Sequence record: NC_013594.1
DNA: 37,235 nucleotides
Origin: Escherichia phage D108
Direction: 5' to 3' (one strand)
The position numbers and the translations under genes are program-made. The notes below the pieces were generated by a model. The model was not told where the DNA came from, did no database searches, and saw only the letters and a list, made by a program, of their open reading frames with translations. Shown one piece after another: positions 4,732-11,616 of the stretch (its first letter is position 1; every line of letters starts with the position of its first letter).

Positions 4732-5001
4732 ATGGCAAAAGTAATCTTTGAATTTAACAATACAAGAAATATTGAGTTTCAGGAAAATGGAGGTTTTGCC
4801 GTAAATATGAATGTGCGACTGGAAGAATCCTCACCTGAGGACCAGACCGGGCCACATGATGTAATGGCAGGCATCATCAAGAGCATGGCTCCTGAAATCA
4901 TTAAAAAAGCGACCGAGGAGTTGTTGAAATCAGCCAGGGAGCTTGGGCTGGAAGCCGAGGGGGAATTATTCAGCTATAACCCGAATACAGCCAGACATTA
5001 A
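4732..5001 (+). CDS. Hypothetical early protein (89 aa)
   Basis: SD AAGGAGAAG upstream; tightly packed in the early operon. Confidence 0.6.
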   Translation: MAKVIFEFNNTRNIEFQENGGFAVNMNVRLEESSPEDQTGPHDVMAGIIKSMAPEIIKKATEELLKSARELGLEAEGELFSYNPNTARH

Positions 5002-5021
5002 TTCGCAAAGGAACGCTGACA

Positions 5022-7444: not shown

Positions 7445-7613
7445 AACATCGTATTCGTGGCTGGGGAAATTTACCACGGTGAAACAGGAATGCCCGACCT
7501 GCGGTAATGAATCTCCTGAATATCTGAAAGAGTGCCCTCATTGTGGCGGGCAGAAATGCAACCACTGCGATATGGGCGATGACACGGCGTGCATGAATTG
7601 TGAAGGTGAATAA
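7431..7613 (+). CDS. Cys-rich zinc-ribbon small protein (60 aa)
   Basis: CPTCG...CPHCGG...CNHC...CMNC motifs. Confidence 0.55.
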   Translation: MENNETSYSWLGKFTTVKQECPTCGNESPEYLKECPHCGGQKCNHCDMGDDTACMNCEGE

Positions 7614-7614
7614 T

Positions 7615-7905
7615 ATGAATAATGAAACTAAATTTACGCCTAAAGACCTGGATGAAGAACTGGTGAAAGCTAAGATGCTTGAGCGTATGCACGATGTTAT
7701 TGAGACTGCAATCAGTAAAGGCTTTTCTGCGAGAGAGGCCCTTGAAATTATGACACGGGAAATTCATCTCATACGCGACGAAGTTTTGTTGCATAACAAA
7801 AAAGCCCACAACAATATTGTTTGTCGTGAGCTTGGCGTTGATGATTCAGCGGTTATTCCACAGCGTCAGTATCTGTGTGCTCTGATGAGAGGTTCCCGGC
7901 ATTAA
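7615..7905 (+). CDS. Hypothetical early protein (96 aa)
   Basis: ATG at 7615 with SD GAAGGTGAA upstream (the track begins at an upstream GTG, 7600). Its 3' end overlaps the convergent leftward ORF by about 53 bp. Confidence 0.5.
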   Translation: MNNETKFTPKDLDEELVKAKMLERMHDVIETAISKGFSAREALEIMTREIHLIRDEVLLHNKKAHNNIVCRELGVDDSAVIPQRQYLCALMRGSRH

Positions 7906-8212
7906 CAATATCCTGCCTTGAAGCCCAGAGCTTATTGAGCAGCAGATCAACATACTCATCGGCCTCAAAATCCAGTTCTTCGAACGTTTTTCGGTTCTTA
8001 TAGCTGGCCTGTGTATTTCTGATGATGTCATAAGCATCGTGCATGTTGATAACACCGTTTTCAATCAGCTTAATCATCAGATTACCGACCAGCATAAAAC
8101 CGGTTATACCAAAGAATTTATCCTGGTTATTAACAGGGGTGTCTTTCTGGTTTGTTTCGAAATCTGGGTTTTGTTCATCATCCGACACCGTATGTTGTTC
8201 TTGTTCAGCCAT
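7853..8212 (-). CDS. Leftward hypothetical acidic protein (119 aa) embedded in the rightward early operon
   Basis: Clean ORF with SD (AAAGGAAATATT-ATG on the minus strand) and CTG-dominated Leu codons. No credible plus-strand ORF covers 7906-8281: the plus-frame extension upstream of gemA translates to junk. Confidence 0.55.
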   Translation of the reverse strand: MAEQEQHTVSDDEQNPDFETNQKDTPVNNQDKFFGITGFMLVGNLMIKLIENGVINMHDAYDIIRNTQASYKNRKTFEELDFEADEYVDLLLNKLWASRQDIVNAGNLSSEHTDTDAVE

Positions 8213-8281
8213 AATATTTCCTTTTATGTTATTACTGAATATGGCGGTGTTGCAGCACCGCCTCTTTCCGGAGGTACGATC

Positions 8282-8833
8282 ATGAGTCGCACATCCCTGA
8301 TTAAATTAATCCATGTCGCCCGTCGGGAGCTACAACTCGACGACGACACTTACCGCGCTTTTCTGATGCAGAAAACGGGCAAAATCAGTTGCCGCGAGCT
8401 TACGGTTACGCAACTGGAACAGGTGCTCGATGCCATGAAAGAACGCGGCTTTAAGAAGCTGAATAAATACCCCCGTCGCCGCTTTAAGGAACATGTCACA
8501 CCCCGCGAGAAGGTGTATAAAATCTGGCAGCAGATGGCAGAAGACGGTTTTATTACCGATGGCGGTGATGTGGCGCTGGATAAATATGTTCAGCGCCTGA
8601 CGGCGAAACGTAATGGCGGACAGGGTGTTTCCACGCTGGCTTGGTGCCACGGAGAATCGTTGCAAGTTGTGCTTGAAACCCTGAAACAGTGGCACATCCG
8701 CTGTATTCGTGAAGCCTTTTCCCGTCACGGGCTTCCGTTGCCGGTCAGTCCGTCCGGGCGTGAACTGCGCGGCTATGATGCCATGACGGCGGCTTATGCC
8801 CATGCCAGAAAGACACGGAGGATGGCACAATGA
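8282..8833 (+). CDS. gemA: GemA-like early protein (183 aa)
   Basis: ATG at 8282 with SD GGAGG upstream; lies immediately before mor as in Mu (the track start at 8039 is an unlikely extension). Confidence 0.7.
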   Translation: MSRTSLIKLIHVARRELQLDDDTYRAFLMQKTGKISCRELTVTQLEQVLDAMKERGFKKLNKYPRRRFKEHVTPREKVYKIWQQMAEDGFITDGGDVALDKYVQRLTAKRNGGQGVSTLAWCHGESLQVVLETLKQWHIRCIREAFSRHGLPLPVSPSGRELRGYDAMTAAYAHARKTRRMAQ

Positions 8834-9219
8834 CGGAAGATTTATTTGGTGATTTGCAGGATGACACCATCCTGGCACATCTTGACAATCCCGCAGAGGA
8901 TGCGTCACGCTTTCCGGCACTGCTGGCGGAGCTGAACGATTTACTGCGCGGGGAGTTGTCCCGGCTGGGTGTTGATCCTGCCCATTCACTGGAGATTGTT
9001 GTGGCTATCTGTAAGCATCTGGGCGGCGGTCAGGTCTACATTCCACGCGGTCAGGTTCTGGACTCGCTGATTCGGGATTTGCGTATCTGGAATGATTTTA
9101 ACGGTCGCAACGTCAGCGAACTGACCACCCGTTATGGTGTCACTTTCAATACGGTTTACAAGGCCATTCGCCGGATGCGACGGCTGAAATACCGCCAGTA
9201 CCAGCCCTCACTTCTGTAA
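8830..9219 (+). CDS. mor: Mor, middle-operon transcription activator (129 aa)
   Basis: Mor/C family; C-terminal HTH region (IPRGQVLDSLIRDLRIWNDFNGRNVSEL...) is paralogous to the C protein at 10012; last gene before the early terminator. Confidence 0.85.
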   Translation: MTEDLFGDLQDDTILAHLDNPAEDASRFPALLAELNDLLRGELSRLGVDPAHSLEIVVAICKHLGGGQVYIPRGQVLDSLIRDLRIWNDFNGRNVSELTTRYGVTFNTVYKAIRRMRRLKYRQYQPSLL

Positions 9220-9225
9220 ACAGTA

Positions 9226-9250
9226 AAGCCGGTTAATCCGGCTTTTTTTA
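9226..9250 (+). terminator. Rho-independent terminator of the early transcript
   Basis: aagccgg-ttaat-ccggctt hairpin followed by T7 run, 7 bp after the mor stop; about 9.2 kb from the left end, as for the Mu early terminator. The middle promoter Pm is expected just downstream. Confidence 0.8.
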
Positions 9251-9296
9251 CGTCCTCAATATCCTGTGATGAATAACCGTACCGGGGGAAATCATC

Positions 9297-9515
9297 ATGG
9301 GTAAAGGCTGGAATGCATCCTTTCATCTTGGCAGACGTGAGCGGCTGCGTCAGGAGGTTTTGCACCGTGTCGCCGGTGGGCCACGGCCTGCGCCCCGCGA
9401 CTATACCGGTCATGATGGCACCCACGGCAGTTATTACATGAAAGGCTGGCAGTCAGTTGATATGCCGGAAATTCTTCATCATTGCCTGCTTTACAGGGAG
9501 AAACATTATGTCTGA
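9297..9515 (+). CDS. Hypothetical middle-operon protein (72 aa)
   Basis: ORF with GGGGGAAA SD-like sequence; first ORF after the early terminator. Confidence 0.45.
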   Translation: MGKGWNASFHLGRRERLRQEVLHRVAGGPRPAPRDYTGHDGTHGSYYMKGWQSVDMPEILHHCLLYREKHYV

Positions 9516-9870
9516 GCGTTCTGCTCGTCAGTGGCCTGATTTTTTATCGGTGGTGTTACTGGCGCTGTTATTGTGGATAAGTCTGTTTTGTGGCTGGCGC
9601 GCGCTGATGTTTTGCTGTGCCTCGGTTTTCAGTGTTGCTTTATGTGTTGCCGGTGATTGTCTGGATGCGCTGATAATGAGCTGCCGGGTGCCTGAACATT
9701 TTGCCCGGTTCGTCTGGCCGCTGACCTGGCTGGGGAGTCTGTCCGGGCTGGGATTAGCCGTGATGGCAACGTCTCAACTGAAAACGGGTCCTGAGCATGT
9801 CATCTGGGCGCTGGCCGGATTGCTGACGTTCTGGCTCTCCTTTCGTTTTCGCGCTCGTCTGTTCGGGTAA
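9508..9870 (+). CDS. Hypothetical multi-pass membrane protein (about 120 aa)
   Basis: Start likely at MSERSARQ (9508). Several hydrophobic helices (VVLLALLLWISLFCGW; ASVFSVALCVAG; LGLAVMATS; WALAGLLTFWLSF). Confidence 0.55.
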   Translation: MSERSARQWPDFLSVVLLALLLWISLFCGWRALMFCCASVFSVALCVAGDCLDALIMSCRVPEHFARFVWPLTWLGSLSGLGLAVMATSQLKTGPEHVIWALAGLLTFWLSFRFRARLFG

Positions 9871-9879
9871 AGGGGCACC

Positions 9880-9999
9880 ATGTACAGAAAATTCAGTGAT
9901 GAATGTTTCGGGCCGTCCACGCTGATTAGTGCGATAAAAGTGATTGCCCTTGTGGTTCTGATAACCATCAGTGCCGTGGTGTATCTTTCTGTCTGTTAA
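9880..9999 (+). CDS. Small single-pass membrane ORF (39 aa), not in the ORF track
   Basis: ATG at 9880 with SD AAGGGG 5 nt upstream; MYRKFSDECFGPSTLISAIKVIALVVLITISAVVYLSVC has one clear TM helix; fills the gap between 9870 and C. Confidence 0.4.
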   Translation: MYRKFSDECFGPSTLISAIKVIALVVLITISAVVYLSVC

Positions 10000-10011
10000 C
10001 CGGGGGAAAAT

Positions 10012-10434
10012 ATGCAGCATGATTTATTTGAACACGATCCGGCAATTCGCCAGTTAATCGGACATATTGATAACATCCCTGCCCCGGAACTGGAATCACG
10101 CTGGCCCCGTTCGGTGGTTGATCTGATTGATGTTCTGGAAAACGAACTGAAACGCCAGAACGTCAGCAATCCCCGTGAGCTTGCCCGTAAACAGGCCGTT
10201 GCCCTGTCCTGTTTTCTGGGTGGGCGGCAGTTTTATATCCCCTGTGGCGATACTATCCTGACCGCGTTACGCGACGATTTGCTTTACTGCCAGTTCAATG
10301 GTCGTAACATGGAAGAACTGCGTCGCCAGTACCGCCTGTCCCAGCCGCAGATCTACCAGATTATTGCCCGCCAGAGAAAGCTGCATACACGGCGTCATCA
10401 GCCTGATCTGTTCTCACCTGAAAGCCCAAAATAA
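10012..10434 (+). CDS. C: C, late-gene transcription activator (140 aa)
   Basis: Mor/C family; size and position (before lys) match Mu C. Confidence 0.85.
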   Translation: MQHDLFEHDPAIRQLIGHIDNIPAPELESRWPRSVVDLIDVLENELKRQNVSNPRELARKQAVALSCFLGGRQFYIPCGDTILTALRDDLLYCQFNGRNMEELRRQYRLSQPQIYQIIARQRKLHTRRHQPDLFSPESPK

Positions 10435-10455
10435 CCGGCATCCTGCCGGTTATTT
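10433..10455 (+). terminator. Hairpin terminator after C (end of middle transcript)
   Basis: aaccggca-tcc-tgccggtt stem-loop followed by T-rich tract. Confidence 0.6.
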
Positions 10456-10525
10456 CCTGTCACCATAATCCCGCACCTGTCACCTGATTTTTTAGACTGC
10501 CATCAGAGATTTTTTTCAGGGAAGC

Positions 10526-11044
10526 ATGATGGCGGGGATACCAAAAAAACTGAAAGCCGCACTGCTGGCGGCAACGATTGCCGGTGGTGGTGTGGGTGGT
10601 TATCAGGAAATGACCCGTCAGTCTCTGATCCATCTGGAAAATATCGCTTATATGCCTTACCGCGATATTGCCGGTGTGCTTACGGTCTGTGTGGGACATA
10701 CCGGACCGGATATCGAAATGCGCCGTTACAGCCATGCGGAGTGTATGGCTCTCCTCGACAGTGATTTAAAACCGGTTTATGCGGCAATCGATCGTCTTGT
10801 CAGGGTGCCGCTGACGCCATATCAGAAAACGGCGCTGGCAACGTTTATTTTCAACACCGGTGTTACCGCATTCAGTAAATCAACGCTGCTGAAAAAACTC
10901 AATGCCGGTGATTACGCCGGAGCGCGTGACCAGATGGCCCGCTGGGTGTTTGCCGCAGGCCATAAATGGAAAGGACTGATGAACCGTCGCGAAGTGGAAA
11001 TGGCAATCTGGAATATCAGGGGGGCGGATGACCTTCGCCAGTAA
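10526..11044 (+). CDS. lys: SAR endolysin, phage lysozyme (T4/P21-type), 172 aa
   Basis: N-terminal weakly hydrophobic Gly/Ala-rich signal-anchor-release segment (LKAALLAATIAGGGVGG), then lysozyme catalytic region (ENIAYMPYRDIAGVLTVCVGHTG). Confidence 0.9.
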   Translation: MMAGIPKKLKAALLAATIAGGGVGGYQEMTRQSLIHLENIAYMPYRDIAGVLTVCVGHTGPDIEMRRYSHAECMALLDSDLKPVYAAIDRLVRVPLTPYQKTALATFIFNTGVTAFSKSTLLKKLNAGDYAGARDQMARWVFAAGHKWKGLMNRREVEMAIWNIRGADDLRQ

Positions 11045-11414
11045 AAGTTTACTGCTGGCAGCCGTGTTTGCCGCCGTTCTGTCCGGGGTGTTGTGGCACA
11101 GGCTGGACAGCACCCGCCACGATAACCAGACGCTGCGCCGTAAATTACAGACGGAGCAACAGGCCCGCCACACTGCTGAATGGTTGTTACACGGTCAGGA
11201 ACAGACGATGCAGGTATTTTCCGCTATCCGTGCCGCAAATCGTGCCGCACGGCTGGCAGATGAGACAGAACATCATGATGCAAAAGAAAAAATTACAACC
11301 GCCATTACCGGTGACAATTGCAGCACTCGTCCTGTGCCTGCCGTTGCTGCTGACAGGTTGCGGGAACTCGAAAAACGCACCCGTGCCATCGGTGGTGATC
11401 CTGCCCGAAACTGA
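11028..11414 (+). CDS. Inner-membrane spanin (Rz-like), 128 aa
   Basis: N-terminal TM helix (LLLAAVFAAVLSGVLW) followed by charged coiled-coil-like periplasmic domain; directly after lys. Confidence 0.7.
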   Translation: MTFASKSLLLAAVFAAVLSGVLWHRLDSTRHDNQTLRRKLQTEQQARHTAEWLLHGQEQTMQVFSAIRAANRAARLADETEHHDAKEKITTAITGDNCSTRPVPAVAADRLRELEKRTRAIGGDPARN

Positions 11415-11616
11415 TACAGAACTGACAGAAGCAACGCCCGTTCCGCCCATGCCACAGCCCCTGACGTGGGGAGCATCCCTTCTCTGGAATGCTGACCTGT
11501 TGATGGCGCTCGGGCAGTGCAACCGCGACAAGGCATCAGTCCGGGAACAGGAGACCCGGAGGAAAGAAATTTATGAACGAAGACCAGAACCGGGCGGTGG
11601 CGCTGCTGCTCGCTGA
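11275..11616 (+). CDS. Outer-membrane lipoprotein spanin (Rz1-like), overlapped in the +1 frame of the i-spanin
   Basis: Starts MMQKKK inside the i-spanin gene; lipobox LLLTG-C; proline-rich mature region; extends past the i-spanin stop (overlapped architecture). Confidence 0.65.
   Translation: MMQKKKLQPPLPVTIAALVLCLPLLLTGCGNSKNAPVPSVVILPETDTELTEATPVPPMPQPLTWGASLLWNADLLMALGQCNRDKASVREQETRRKEIYERRPEPGGGAAAR

Follow-up and report, generated by a model that had tools for sequence, protein, structure and literature searches.

The genome of Escherichia phage D108 (sequence record NC_013594.1), analysed here over its whole length of 37,235 nucleotides and referred to below as the window, carries three short open reading frames, gp18, gp19 and gp20, between the transcriptional activator genes mor and C, and the question raised by this locus is what these three frames are and what they do there. 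We are highly confident that the region corresponds to the Mor-to-Pm-to-C step of the phage Mu cascade, with leader ORFs that are real genes but accessory ones and that would represent the relic of a lysis cassette. The features on which this reading is built are collected in Table 1; the coordinates that an earlier, sequence-only reading had given for the five ORFs between 8830 and 10434 all hold.

The two activators frame the locus. Mor and C both cover the full length of the PF08765 'Mor' model (114 and 116.1 bits, respectively, with a cutoff of 24.9), both match phrog_532, 'late transcriptional activator', and can be aligned with each other over their full length at 37% identity (BLASTP, E=7e-24). 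By the BLASTP and PF08765 matches, Mor and C are true paralogues, which bears out the common core that had been noticed from the letters of the DNA, both peptides quoted for it being present in the translations. Each protein is also near-identical to a structurally solved prototype consisting of an N-terminal dimerisation domain and a C-terminal HTH, with residues 1-129 of Mor matching PDB 1RR7, 'Middle operon regulator', and 9L0Y (E=4.8e-83), and residues 1-140 of C matching 9L0X, 'Late transcription activator C', and 9VW8 (E=1.1e-93).

Table 1. Features of the mor-to-endolysin region of phage D108 (positions in the window)
Feature	Position	Strand	Description	Basis
mor (gp17)	8830..9219	+	middle operon regulator, 129 aa	ORF, PF08765, PDB 1RR7, AF083977
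Pm	9212..9282	+	middle promoter, Mor-dependent, sigma-70, no -35 element	transferred from Mu 9163-9233
Mor-binding dyad (probable)	9222..9237	+	AGTAA-AGCCGG-TTAAT	fit to PMC4390567
Early-operon terminator	9225..9245	+	intrinsic; hairpin AAAGCCGG-TTAAT-CCGGCTTT, then T7 run	terminator scan, AF083977 TransTermHP
gp18 (E18)	9297..9515	+	72-aa soluble protein, PF26867 Phage_Mu_gp18	ORF, phrog_2121, homologues
gp19 (E19)	9508..9870 (ATG 9508)	+	120 aa, 4 TM helices	ORF, phrog_4975, hydropathy, AF2 model
gp20	9880..9999	+	39 aa, one TM helix	ORF, phrog_19823, hydropathy, annotation
C (gp21)	10012..10434	+	late transcription activator, 140 aa	PF08765, PDB 9L0X, BLASTP vs Mor
Middle-transcript terminator	10430..10454	+	hairpin AATAACCGGCA-TCC-TGCCGGTTATT	RNA fold, AF083977 TransTermHP
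Plys	10452..10518	+	late promoter, C-dependent	AF083977, transferred from Mu 10403-10469
gp22	10526..11044	+	SAR endolysin, start of late lysis operon	PF00959 at 130 bits, annotation, PMC9239132

The control elements between these genes are those of Mu. Over the mapped Pm of Mu the window is identical to AF083977, and two positions differ in the stretch aligned for Plys. Pm has no -35 element, and the Mor dimer is described as binding a 16-bp element made of two 5-bp inverted repeats around a G/C-rich 6-bp spacer, centred at -43.5 (PMC4390567); the dyad of Table 1 was placed by its fit to this description, with +1 taken from the annotated Pm span. A sigma-70 promoter scan of the window did not detect Pm, as expected because of the missing -35 element. 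Both Pm for Mor and Plys for C have the layout of a cognate promoter, namely sigma-70 promoters without a -35 element and with an imperfect dyad just upstream. Directly 3' of mor, where the sequence-only reading had put the early terminator, there is indeed a hairpin followed by a U-run (RNA fold -13.8 kcal/mol, z=-3.8), which overlaps the upstream portion of Pm, and a second hairpin (-14.6 kcal/mol, z=-5.1) overlaps the stop codon of C. In the cascade known from Mu, mor closes the early operon, the transcript of which ends at the first hairpin, and a Mor dimer, bound to the dyad overlapping the hairpin DNA, stands in for the absent -35 element and recruits sigma-70 RNA polymerase. The resulting middle transcript of ~1.2 kb comprises the tightly packed gp18, gp19, gp20 and C and ends at the second hairpin, and C then activates Plys, with the SAR endolysin as its first gene, together with the other late promoters. 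Because gp18, gp19 and gp20 are located downstream of Pm, they are transcribed at middle times, as had been proposed for the ORFs between Mor and C; a Pm lying downstream of them is no longer a concern, the promoter being that of Mu, and 19 and 20 are called middle genes in PMC9239132.

Activator-dependent transcription is established for Mu (PMC4390567; bioRxiv 10.1101/2025.05.02.651988), the latter work covering the Mu cascade together with cryo-EM structures of activation complexes. The literature and the sequence identity to Mu establish the Mor-to-C cascade here as well, and the relay in D108 is an already known, textbook regulatory module. Positions 8000-11500 of the window are 97.9-98.1% identical to Mu and Mu_3F6. 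In Mu (AF083977 / NC_000929), gene order and spacing are as in D108, the DNA being 97.9% identical over the matched 3.26 kb and the annotation giving the same succession of Mor, Pm, E18, E19, gp20, C, Plys and SAR endolysin. The gp18 proteins are identical, gp19, gp20 and C differ by one residue each and Mor by two. Inside 8830-10434 nothing of substance distinguishes the middle operons of the two phages. D108 is heteroimmune to Mu, its segments 1-1466, 4765-5006 and 7638-8242 not being homologous to Mu, and Escherichia virus Mu_3F6 matches D108 positions 1-1500 and 7600-8300 at 99.9%.

With the relay itself known, the three leader ORFs are left to be explained. The start of gp19 overlaps the stop of gp18 by 8 nt. 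Hydropathy finds four hydrophobic helices in gp19 and one in gp20, in agreement with the GenBank counts for the 99%-identical Mu proteins, for which the annotated topologies are N-in/C-in (gp19) and N-in/C-out (gp20), and the AF2 model of gp19 has helices at 11-28, 30-59, 63-89 and 96-119. As gp18 is soluble, the earlier description of an operon rich in membrane proteins applies to two of the three leader ORFs, gp19 and gp20. The frames are conserved, with dN/dS values of 0.04-0.09 for gp18, 0.20-0.29 for gp19 and 0.29-0.39 for gp20, by which measure all three are real genes under purifying selection. Across 12 sequences, gp18 has 34 invariant residues, and a precomputed match to PF26867 exists for all 11 gp18 homologues found, to which the gp18 of the window is 64-100% identical; a search of gp18 against a local copy of Pfam gave no match, the PF26867 model perhaps being absent from that copy, and none of the three proteins had an above-threshold Pfam match. 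PADLOC, NCBIfam and Rfam returned nothing for the three leader ORFs or the region, and a literature search under the names Mup18, Mup19 and Mup20 returned only papers on mouse urinary proteins. The range of gp19 is narrow, with seven matches at E<=0.001 in a set of 1.84 billion representative proteins, comprising four close relatives or fragments, one distant homologue and two spurious hits to long repeat proteins.

Relatives of the locus were sampled through gp18 and inspected over ~4 kb on either side, giving 100 related loci and, after dereplication, 83 with a gp18 homologue, 58 of which lack C and 25 of which contain it. Among the C-containing relatives gp20 is always present (25/25) and gp19 is missing from 11, including the viable phages SfMu and PhiR68_1. 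Both of these, like the Yersinia vB_YpM phages of the same genus (Muvirus), keep Mor, Pm, gp18, gp20, C, Plys and the SAR endolysin in the order of D108, and in SfMu and PhiR68_1 gp19 has been removed by a 372-bp deletion that reaches exactly from one start codon to the next. vB_YpM_5 lacks gp19 by the same junction, and there a GH108 muramidase lies between Pm and gp18, whereas D108 has gp19 and no GH108; among the gp19-less loci with GH108, the junction was aligned for vB_YpM_5. The gp19 proteins form an orphan 4-TM family whose gene has frequently been deleted. The present function of gp18-gp20 is probably accessory; most likely they modulate envelope or lysis physiology in a non-essential way.

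The sequence-only reading had put gp19 and gp20, as membrane proteins expressed at middle times and ahead of the endolysin, forward as candidates for a holin/pinholin or a superinfection-exclusion function. In its full form the holin proposal is that gp19 (four TM helices) and gp20 (one) form a holin/antiholin or pinholin pair that depolarises the membrane, frees the SAR endolysin and times lysis; a holin/antiholin pairing of the two was already proposed by Samanta et al. 2021, as cited in PMC9239132. Like lambda S105 and phage 21 S68, the two are small integral membrane proteins near the endolysin, each with at least one TM domain, and homologues of gp19 lie inside an endolysin cassette adjoining a holin-like gene in the C-less relatives. 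They differ from S105 and S68, however, in timing class, in showing no lethality triggered by loss of PMF and in being unneeded for lysis (PMC9239132). They are middle rather than late genes, encoded on the Pm transcript and not on the late lysis transcript of the endolysin, from which C, a terminator and Plys separate them, as is also pointed out in PMC9239132. [quoted passage not shown] Comparison with canonical holins and pinholins found no similarity in sequence or fold, and the absence of gp19 from 11/25 C-containing relatives, viable SfMu and PhiR68_1 among them, also speaks against the proposal. Chamblee et al. 2022 (PMC9239132) conclude that gp19 and gp20 are dispensable for lysis and that Mu uses the releasin gp25, and the same paper cites Mathee & Howe 1993 for the lack of a significant effect of 19 and 20 on lysis. 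A holin role, rejected by experiment in Mu because depolarisation triggered no lethality, is therefore very improbable for the D108 proteins; Mu has no holin, its SAR endolysin being released by gp25.

The polymorphism of gp19 invites a different explanation, in which gp19 and/or gp20 are superinfection-exclusion or membrane-conflict proteins, accessory cargo of the 'moron' type encoded in the leader of the C transcript. In favour of it, both proteins are non-essential (PMC9239132), and gp19 is present or absent as a gene-precise 372-bp indel, has a very narrow taxonomic range and evolves faster than its neighbours (dN/dS 0.2-0.3). Against it, none of gp18, gp19 and gp20 is homologous to an exclusion or defence protein described so far, with no PADLOC match at E<=0.01 and no match in NCBIfam. 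Exclusion normally acts in the lysogen, and since Pm needs Mor, gp18-gp20 should be silent there; Mor is produced only after derepression, which would argue against expression of gp19 and gp20 in the lysogen. The position of the gp19 family, fixed inside a lysis cassette in 58/58 C-less loci, is likewise unlike that of typical exchangeable cargo. We consider an exclusion function improbable, if less so than a holin function.

The C-less relatives bear on the origin of the leader. They comprise Klebsiella, Raoultella, Pluralibacter, Citrobacter and Serratia prophages and the phages MuM16-2, martha 12B12 and HS6, and share with D108 GemA, a Mor orthologue with 63-65% identity to Mor and about 35% to C, the conserved terminator/Pm-like element, gp18, a TraR-like protein and DUF2730, as well as, in the enterobacterial members only, a 4-TM protein of the gp19 family. 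Unlike D108, they have no C, gp20 or SAR endolysin within the 8 kb examined; their Pm-like element drives the endolysin directly, followed by a 203-aa holin-like protein, and these phages would thus run a two-tier rather than a three-tier cascade. All 58 C-less loci of the dereplicated set have a GH108 endolysin, gp18, a 4-TM protein and the 203-aa protein, then DUF2730, with gp18 and the 4-TM protein fused in one locus, and a TraR-like zinc-finger gene also follows the cassette where Pfam gene calls exist. The 25 C-containing loci have gp20 throughout, the holin-like gene in none, the 4-TM gene in 14 and GH108 in eight. In 98/100 loci the core motif of the Pm/terminator element is found once, at a distance of 48-89 nt on the upstream side of the first cassette gene. 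'Holin-like' is based on a match of the 203-aa protein to Pfam GTA_holin_3TM at 17.4 bits, below the cutoff of 24.8, and hhalign finds no relation between this protein and gp20 (probability 0.1%).

Whether the 4-TM proteins of the two groups belong together cannot be read from a direct comparison, BLASTP of gp19 against the Klebsiella 4-TM protein giving no significant match (E=1.5). Profile comparison with hhalign gives a score of 43.3 and a probability of 92%; the reversed control scores 10.5, and 60 column shuffles average 12.2 with a maximum of 16.1. A further homologue, P0021, bridges the two and can be aligned with gp19 at E=4e-10. From the controlled profile comparison and the bridging homologue, which are the only links between them, the C-less 4-TM family is homologous to gp19.

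In most relatives, then, the Pm/terminator element drives a cluster of endolysin, gp18, 4-TM and holin-like genes, and the Mu leader accordingly resembles a 5' part split off from such a cassette. On the model that follows, gp18-gp20 would be the surviving 5' part of an ancestral cassette of endolysin, gp18, 4-TM protein, holin-like protein, TraR-like protein and DUF2730, driven by the same Mor-dependent promoter, which came apart when the holin-like gene gave way to a block of gp20, C, Plys, SAR endolysin and spanins. A bolder reading, to which we give somewhat less than an even chance, is that the middle operon did not arise as a stage of regulation at all but is a decapitated Mor-driven lysis operon with a 3-TM holin-like protein, in which the inserted block created the third, late tier and made the old endolysin and 4-TM gene dispensable. 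For the split-cassette model in general, the gene-order evidence carries an ascertainment bias, because relatives were sampled through gp18, the locus counts are not independent events, because many loci are closely related prophages, and whether the change was a loss in the Mu lineage or a gain in others was decided by parsimony and three distant outgroups only. With ~4 kb inspected on either side, the C-less prophages may also carry a second activator or endolysin at another place. The model would provide an evolutionary account of two features of Mu, its separate middle stage with three ORFs that can be dispensed with and its lack of a holin.

The strong purifying selection on gp18 in Mu, which persists despite the loss of both ancestral neighbours of the gene, argues for a function beyond that of a relic. 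One such function would be a subtle role in lysis retained by gp18-gp20, which are made ahead of the endolysin because they are on the middle transcript and might, for example, tune or restrain release of the SAR endolysin or hold the PMF until the late proteins arrive. The conservation of gp18 in Mu-type phages devoid of its ancestral neighbours is matched by its retention beside at least two unrelated endolysin types, GH108 muramidases and a DUF5675 protein, in gamma-proteobacterial Mu-like phages, and gp20, C and the SAR endolysin are always found together. In the phrog_2121 profile, positions 3-73 match gp18 and positions 89-272 the holin-like 203-aa protein, a hint that the two may occur fused or closely coupled. 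Yet no lysis phenotype is reported for inactivation of 19 and 20, a plasmid with gp22-gp25 alone served to reproduce lysis (PMC9239132), and no similarity of gp18-gp20 to known lysis regulators was found in sequence or structure. A tuning role is possible but, on balance, unlikely, though less so than exclusion.

If the middle operon is such a decapitated lysis operon, gp18 and the gp19/K135 family would be uncharacterised components of the lysis machinery in many holin-containing Mu-like prophages, and in Mu they would persist in a residual or repurposed capacity. The comparison makes gp18 (PF26867) and the gp19-related 4-TM family candidate lysis-cassette components in the large group of Klebsiella- and Enterobacter-type Mu-like prophages with a cytoplasmic GH108 endolysin. 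A similar neighbourhood extends further, in that gp18 lies between an endolysin and a holin-type membrane protein in distant Mu-like phages of Vibrio, Shewanella and Pseudoalteromonas, where the type of endolysin differs.

The stretch from 8000 to 11500 shares 97.9-98.1% identity with Escherichia phage Mu (AF083977 / NC_000929) and Escherichia virus Mu_3F6, and is also matched by SfMu, PhiR68_1 and several Yersinia Muvirus phages. From GemA through the releasin gp25, the window and the re-annotated Mu record have one feature order in common (Mu coordinates plus 49 give those of the window in this region): GemA, Mor (gp17), a terminator overlapping the Mor-activated middle promoter Pm, E18 (gp18), E19 (gp19) and gp20, then C (gp21), a terminator, the C-activated late promoter Plys, the SAR endolysin gp22, the spanins, gp24 and gp25. 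The feature is the already known Mu middle operon with Mor and C. BLASTN against Mu leaves 1-1466, 4765-5006 and 7638-8242 without a match, while 1-1500 (repressor, ner and the start of the transposase gene; 86.6% identity to SfMu) and 7600-8300 are 99.9% identical to Mu_3F6, against only 98.1% in the middle region. As segments that find no match in Mu are near-identical to Mu_3F6, the phage is a heteroimmune mosaic relative of Mu and not Mu itself. Directly upstream of gemA, within the rightward early operon, a 119-aa minus-strand ORF stands in for the Mu gp14-end/gp54 segment; its PHROG match is phrog_38610 (unknown function, E=8e-83), Mu_3F6 has it as an annotated CDS, and SfMu and the Yersinia phages have a shorter minus-strand ORF at this site.

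Features of the middle region, in window coordinates, with pairwise Nei-Gojobori dN/dS against relatives at informative distances
Feature	Position	Description	dN/dS
Minus-strand ORF	7853-8212 (-)	119 aa	
Mor (gp17)	8830-9219	activator	
Pm	9212-9282	carried over from annotated Mu span 9163-9233	
Putative Mor dyad	9222-9237	AGTAA-AGCCGG-TTAAT	
Early terminator hairpin, T7 run	9225-9245	after Mor; -13.8 kcal/mol, z=-3.8	
gp18 (E18)	9297-9515	72 aa	0.04-0.09
gp19 (E19)	9508-9870	120 aa	0.20-0.29
gp20	9880-9999	39 aa	0.29-0.39 (few sites)
C (gp21)	10012-10434	activator	
Second hairpin	10430-10454	over C stop codon; -14.6 kcal/mol, z=-5.1	
gp22	10526-11044	SAR endolysin	

The five ORFs from Mor to C lie where the sequence-only reading had placed them, the peptides it quoted are found in their translations, and the paralogy it had seen between Mor and C extends end to end (37% identity, E=7e-24). 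Both proteins score far beyond the PF08765 cutoff of 24.9 bits (Mor 114, C 116) and have matches in the PDB (Mor to 1RR7/9L0Y, C to 9L0X/9VW8). Of the clamp-binding motifs DLF and QPDLF (2026 PNAS paper), the N-terminal DLF is retained in both and the C-terminal QPDLF in C, and the sequence-testable hallmarks of the Mor/C family are all present. The two activator genes also end alike, with a CCGG-rich terminator hairpin at or just past the stop codon. In each case the activator-dependent promoter that follows, Pm behind Mor and Plys behind C, is overlapped by the hairpin at its upstream edge, an arrangement that fits a duplication of the whole activator-terminator-promoter module.

Pm is a sigma-70 promoter with a -10 but no -35 element, activated by a Mor dimer on a 16-bp dyad centred at -43.5 (PMC4390567), and cryo-EM structures of activation complexes are available (bioRxiv 10.1101/2025.05.02.651988). 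The window equals Mu base for base across Pm; with +1 set from the annotated Pm span, the dyad would fall over the left arm of the early hairpin, itself a credible intrinsic terminator. Pm lies upstream of the gp18 ATG and not downstream of the leader ORFs, which are closely spaced (gp18/gp19 overlap of 8 nt; gaps of 9 nt between gp19 and gp20 and 12 nt between gp20 and C), and all three frames are under purifying selection. With the promoter upstream and the frames conserved, neither the untranscribed ORFs nor the unconserved frames for which the sequence-only reading had allowed are found: gp18, gp19 and gp20 are real middle genes.

The membrane helices expected of these products were found, gp19 having four hydrophobic helices and gp20 one, with gp18 soluble; an AF2 model of gp19 places helices at 11-28, 30-59, 63-89 and 96-119 (pLDDT 67), and the Mu record annotates E19 with 4 TM (N-in/C-in) and gp20 with 1 TM (N-in/C-out). 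A role of gp19 and gp20 as holin or pinholin is not supported. Samanta et al. 2021 had already assigned the two as holin/antiholin, and Chamblee et al. 2022 (PMC9239132) put this to the test with the Mu proteins. On pBAD induction of gp19, gp20 or the pair, cells remained viable with DNP, lambda S105 and phage 21 S68 being lethal; all candidates together with catalytically dead gp22 in one construct were also non-lethal, and in induced Mu lysogens DNP delayed lysis rather than triggering it, Mu being described as holin-less with gp25 (DUF2730) as the 'releasin' of the SAR endolysin (PMC9239132). Because gp19 and gp20 each differ from their Mu counterparts by one residue, these results transfer to the proteins of the window. 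Like holins, gp19 and gp20 are small TM proteins, but they are not encoded on the late lysis transcript, and for the two remaining, functional hallmarks of holins the published experiments on nearly identical proteins are negative. As for superinfection exclusion, gp18, gp19 and gp20 showed no similarity in PADLOC, NCBIfam or Pfam families, and, being Mor-dependent, these genes would be expected to stay silent in lysogens.

gp19 is nearly an orphan, with 6 clusters in an index of 5.8 billion proteins and 7 hits when 1.84 billion representatives were scanned exhaustively with HMMER, four of them close relatives or fragments and one, P0021, a homologue that is distant but true (37% identity, E=4e-10); the other two, repeat proteins of over 700 aa, were rejected as spurious. 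SfMu and vB_YpM_5 have lost gp19 through a deletion of exactly 372 bp, whose ends are set by the start-codon ATGT of gp19 and that of gp20 (window 9508-9880; SfMu locus 1528-1586; vB_YpM_5 locus 2086-2144), and a start-to-start deletion hands the translation-initiation site of gp19 to gp20. In both, gp20 starts (ATG or GTG) at the would-be gp19 start and gp18 is longer by 4 residues (VQKIQ). Relative to two further loci (L032 and L036), the region is a mosaic with sharp boundaries: divergence is high for Mor and gp18 (window 8830-9515; dS 0.4 to above 1), whereas gp20 and C are near-identical (dS 0-0.1), as is gp19, present in L032 only. This indicates that activator, promoter and gp18 are exchanged as one unit by recombination.

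gp18 is a member of PF26867 (Phage_Mu_gp18), a small and conserved family in which 34 residues are invariant among 12 sequences, and was used as the anchor to gather 99 loci besides the window, about 4 kb on each side, whose neighbouring genes were classified; 83 remained after dereplication. The 58 loci without C all carry a GH108 endolysin, a 4-TM protein (about 135 aa; fused to gp18 in L019) and a further protein of 203 aa, and none has gp20; their order is GemA, Mor, optional cargo, GH108, gp18, the 4-TM gene and the 203-aa gene, followed by DUF2730, with a TraR-like zinc-finger gene before DUF2730 where Pfam gene calls were made. All 25 loci with C have gp20 and none the 203-aa protein, with GH108 in 8 and a 4-TM protein in 14. 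C-less phages have a single activator, which is orthologous to Mor (63-65% identity to Mor, about 35% to C). By profile comparison, gp19 and the 135-aa family are homologues (hhalign score 43.3, probability 92%, all four helices aligned; against 10.5 for the reversed sequence and a mean of 12.2, SD 1.7 and maximum 16.1 for 60 column shuffles), and members of this family sit where gp19 does, the start/stop overlap with gp18 included. A terminator/Pm core, AGCCGGT[AT]AATCCGGC followed by 6-9 T, occurs as a single copy in 98 of the 100 loci, always 48-89 nt ahead of the gene that opens the cassette (GH108 in 79, gp18 in 19), and is kept despite saturated synonymous sites between the groups. The strict motif search missed L034 (IMGVR_UViG_2531839192_000008) because its element, between Mor and GH108, is partly tandem-duplicated (…GCCGGTTAATCCGGGAATCCGGCTTTTTTTACGCCCTCAATGCCGGTTAATCCGGCTTTTTTT…). 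In three more distant Mu-like phages, Pseudoalteromonas HS6, Shewanella MuM16-2 and Vibrio martha 12B12, a gp18 homologue likewise lies directly 3' of an endolysin, which is of varying type (DUF5675 in martha), and is followed by a membrane protein resembling the 203-aa type or called 'holin', a TraR-like protein and DUF2730.

The simplest reading of this gene order is that the middle-operon leader may be the remnant of a lysis cassette. Ancestral Mu-like phages would have had a two-tier cascade in which a Mor-dependent promoter drove a lysis/late operon beginning with endolysin, gp18, the 4-TM protein (in enterobacterial phages) and a holin-like protein. The Mu lineage would then have exchanged the holin-like gene for a block made up of gp20, C, Plys, SAR endolysin and spanins, stranding gp18 and gp19 upstream of C as the leader of the 'middle operon'; the old endolysin and the 4-TM gene would thereby have turned dispensable, so that both are now being lost. 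The loci were sampled through gp18 (ascertainment), the prophages are non-independent, and polarity is set by parsimony and three outgroups only. The 203-aa protein, with a sub-threshold match to GTA_holin_3TM, is a weak holin candidate. The strong constraint on gp18 in Mu is unexplained by such a history and points to a further activity of this protein. Only the leader as a lysis-cassette remnant is possibly new; no discussion of it was found in the incompletely accessible literature (PMC9239132 has no GH108 and the SfMu paper no gp19). It nominates gp18 and gp19-family proteins as lysis-cassette components of C-less Mu-like prophages.

Both gp18 (profile positions 3-73) and the 203-aa protein (89-272) match phrog_2121 (284 positions), a hint that gp18-holin fusions or merged gene calls are among its members. 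In a Serratia MAG (L019, 4001-4546) a single ORF of 181 aa has the first ~54 residues of gp18 in front of a 4-TM protein of the gp19/135-aa type, either a genuine fusion or a MAG frameshift error. In the divergent C-containing lineage of L012/L013 (5018-5446), the post-C lysozyme has just 142 aa with an N-terminal hydrophobic segment, and no spanin or gp24 gene was detected between it and the adjoining DUF2730. Many C-less prophages (among L006-L010, L015 and L046-L093) carry one variable cargo gene of several unrelated families (~140-200 aa, with a signal peptide or a small membrane protein) at the early-operon end, past the stop codon of Mor but ahead of the terminator/Pm-like hairpin, an interval that looks like a moron slot and holds no gene in the window. 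In vB_YpM_5 (L004, 1360-1920) and other C-containing Muvirus phages (L012, L032, L036-L042), an apparently intact GH108 + PG_binding_3 muramidase with the EGGY motif heads the middle operon; together with the late SAR endolysin gp22, it gives these phages two muralytic enzymes under different temporal control.
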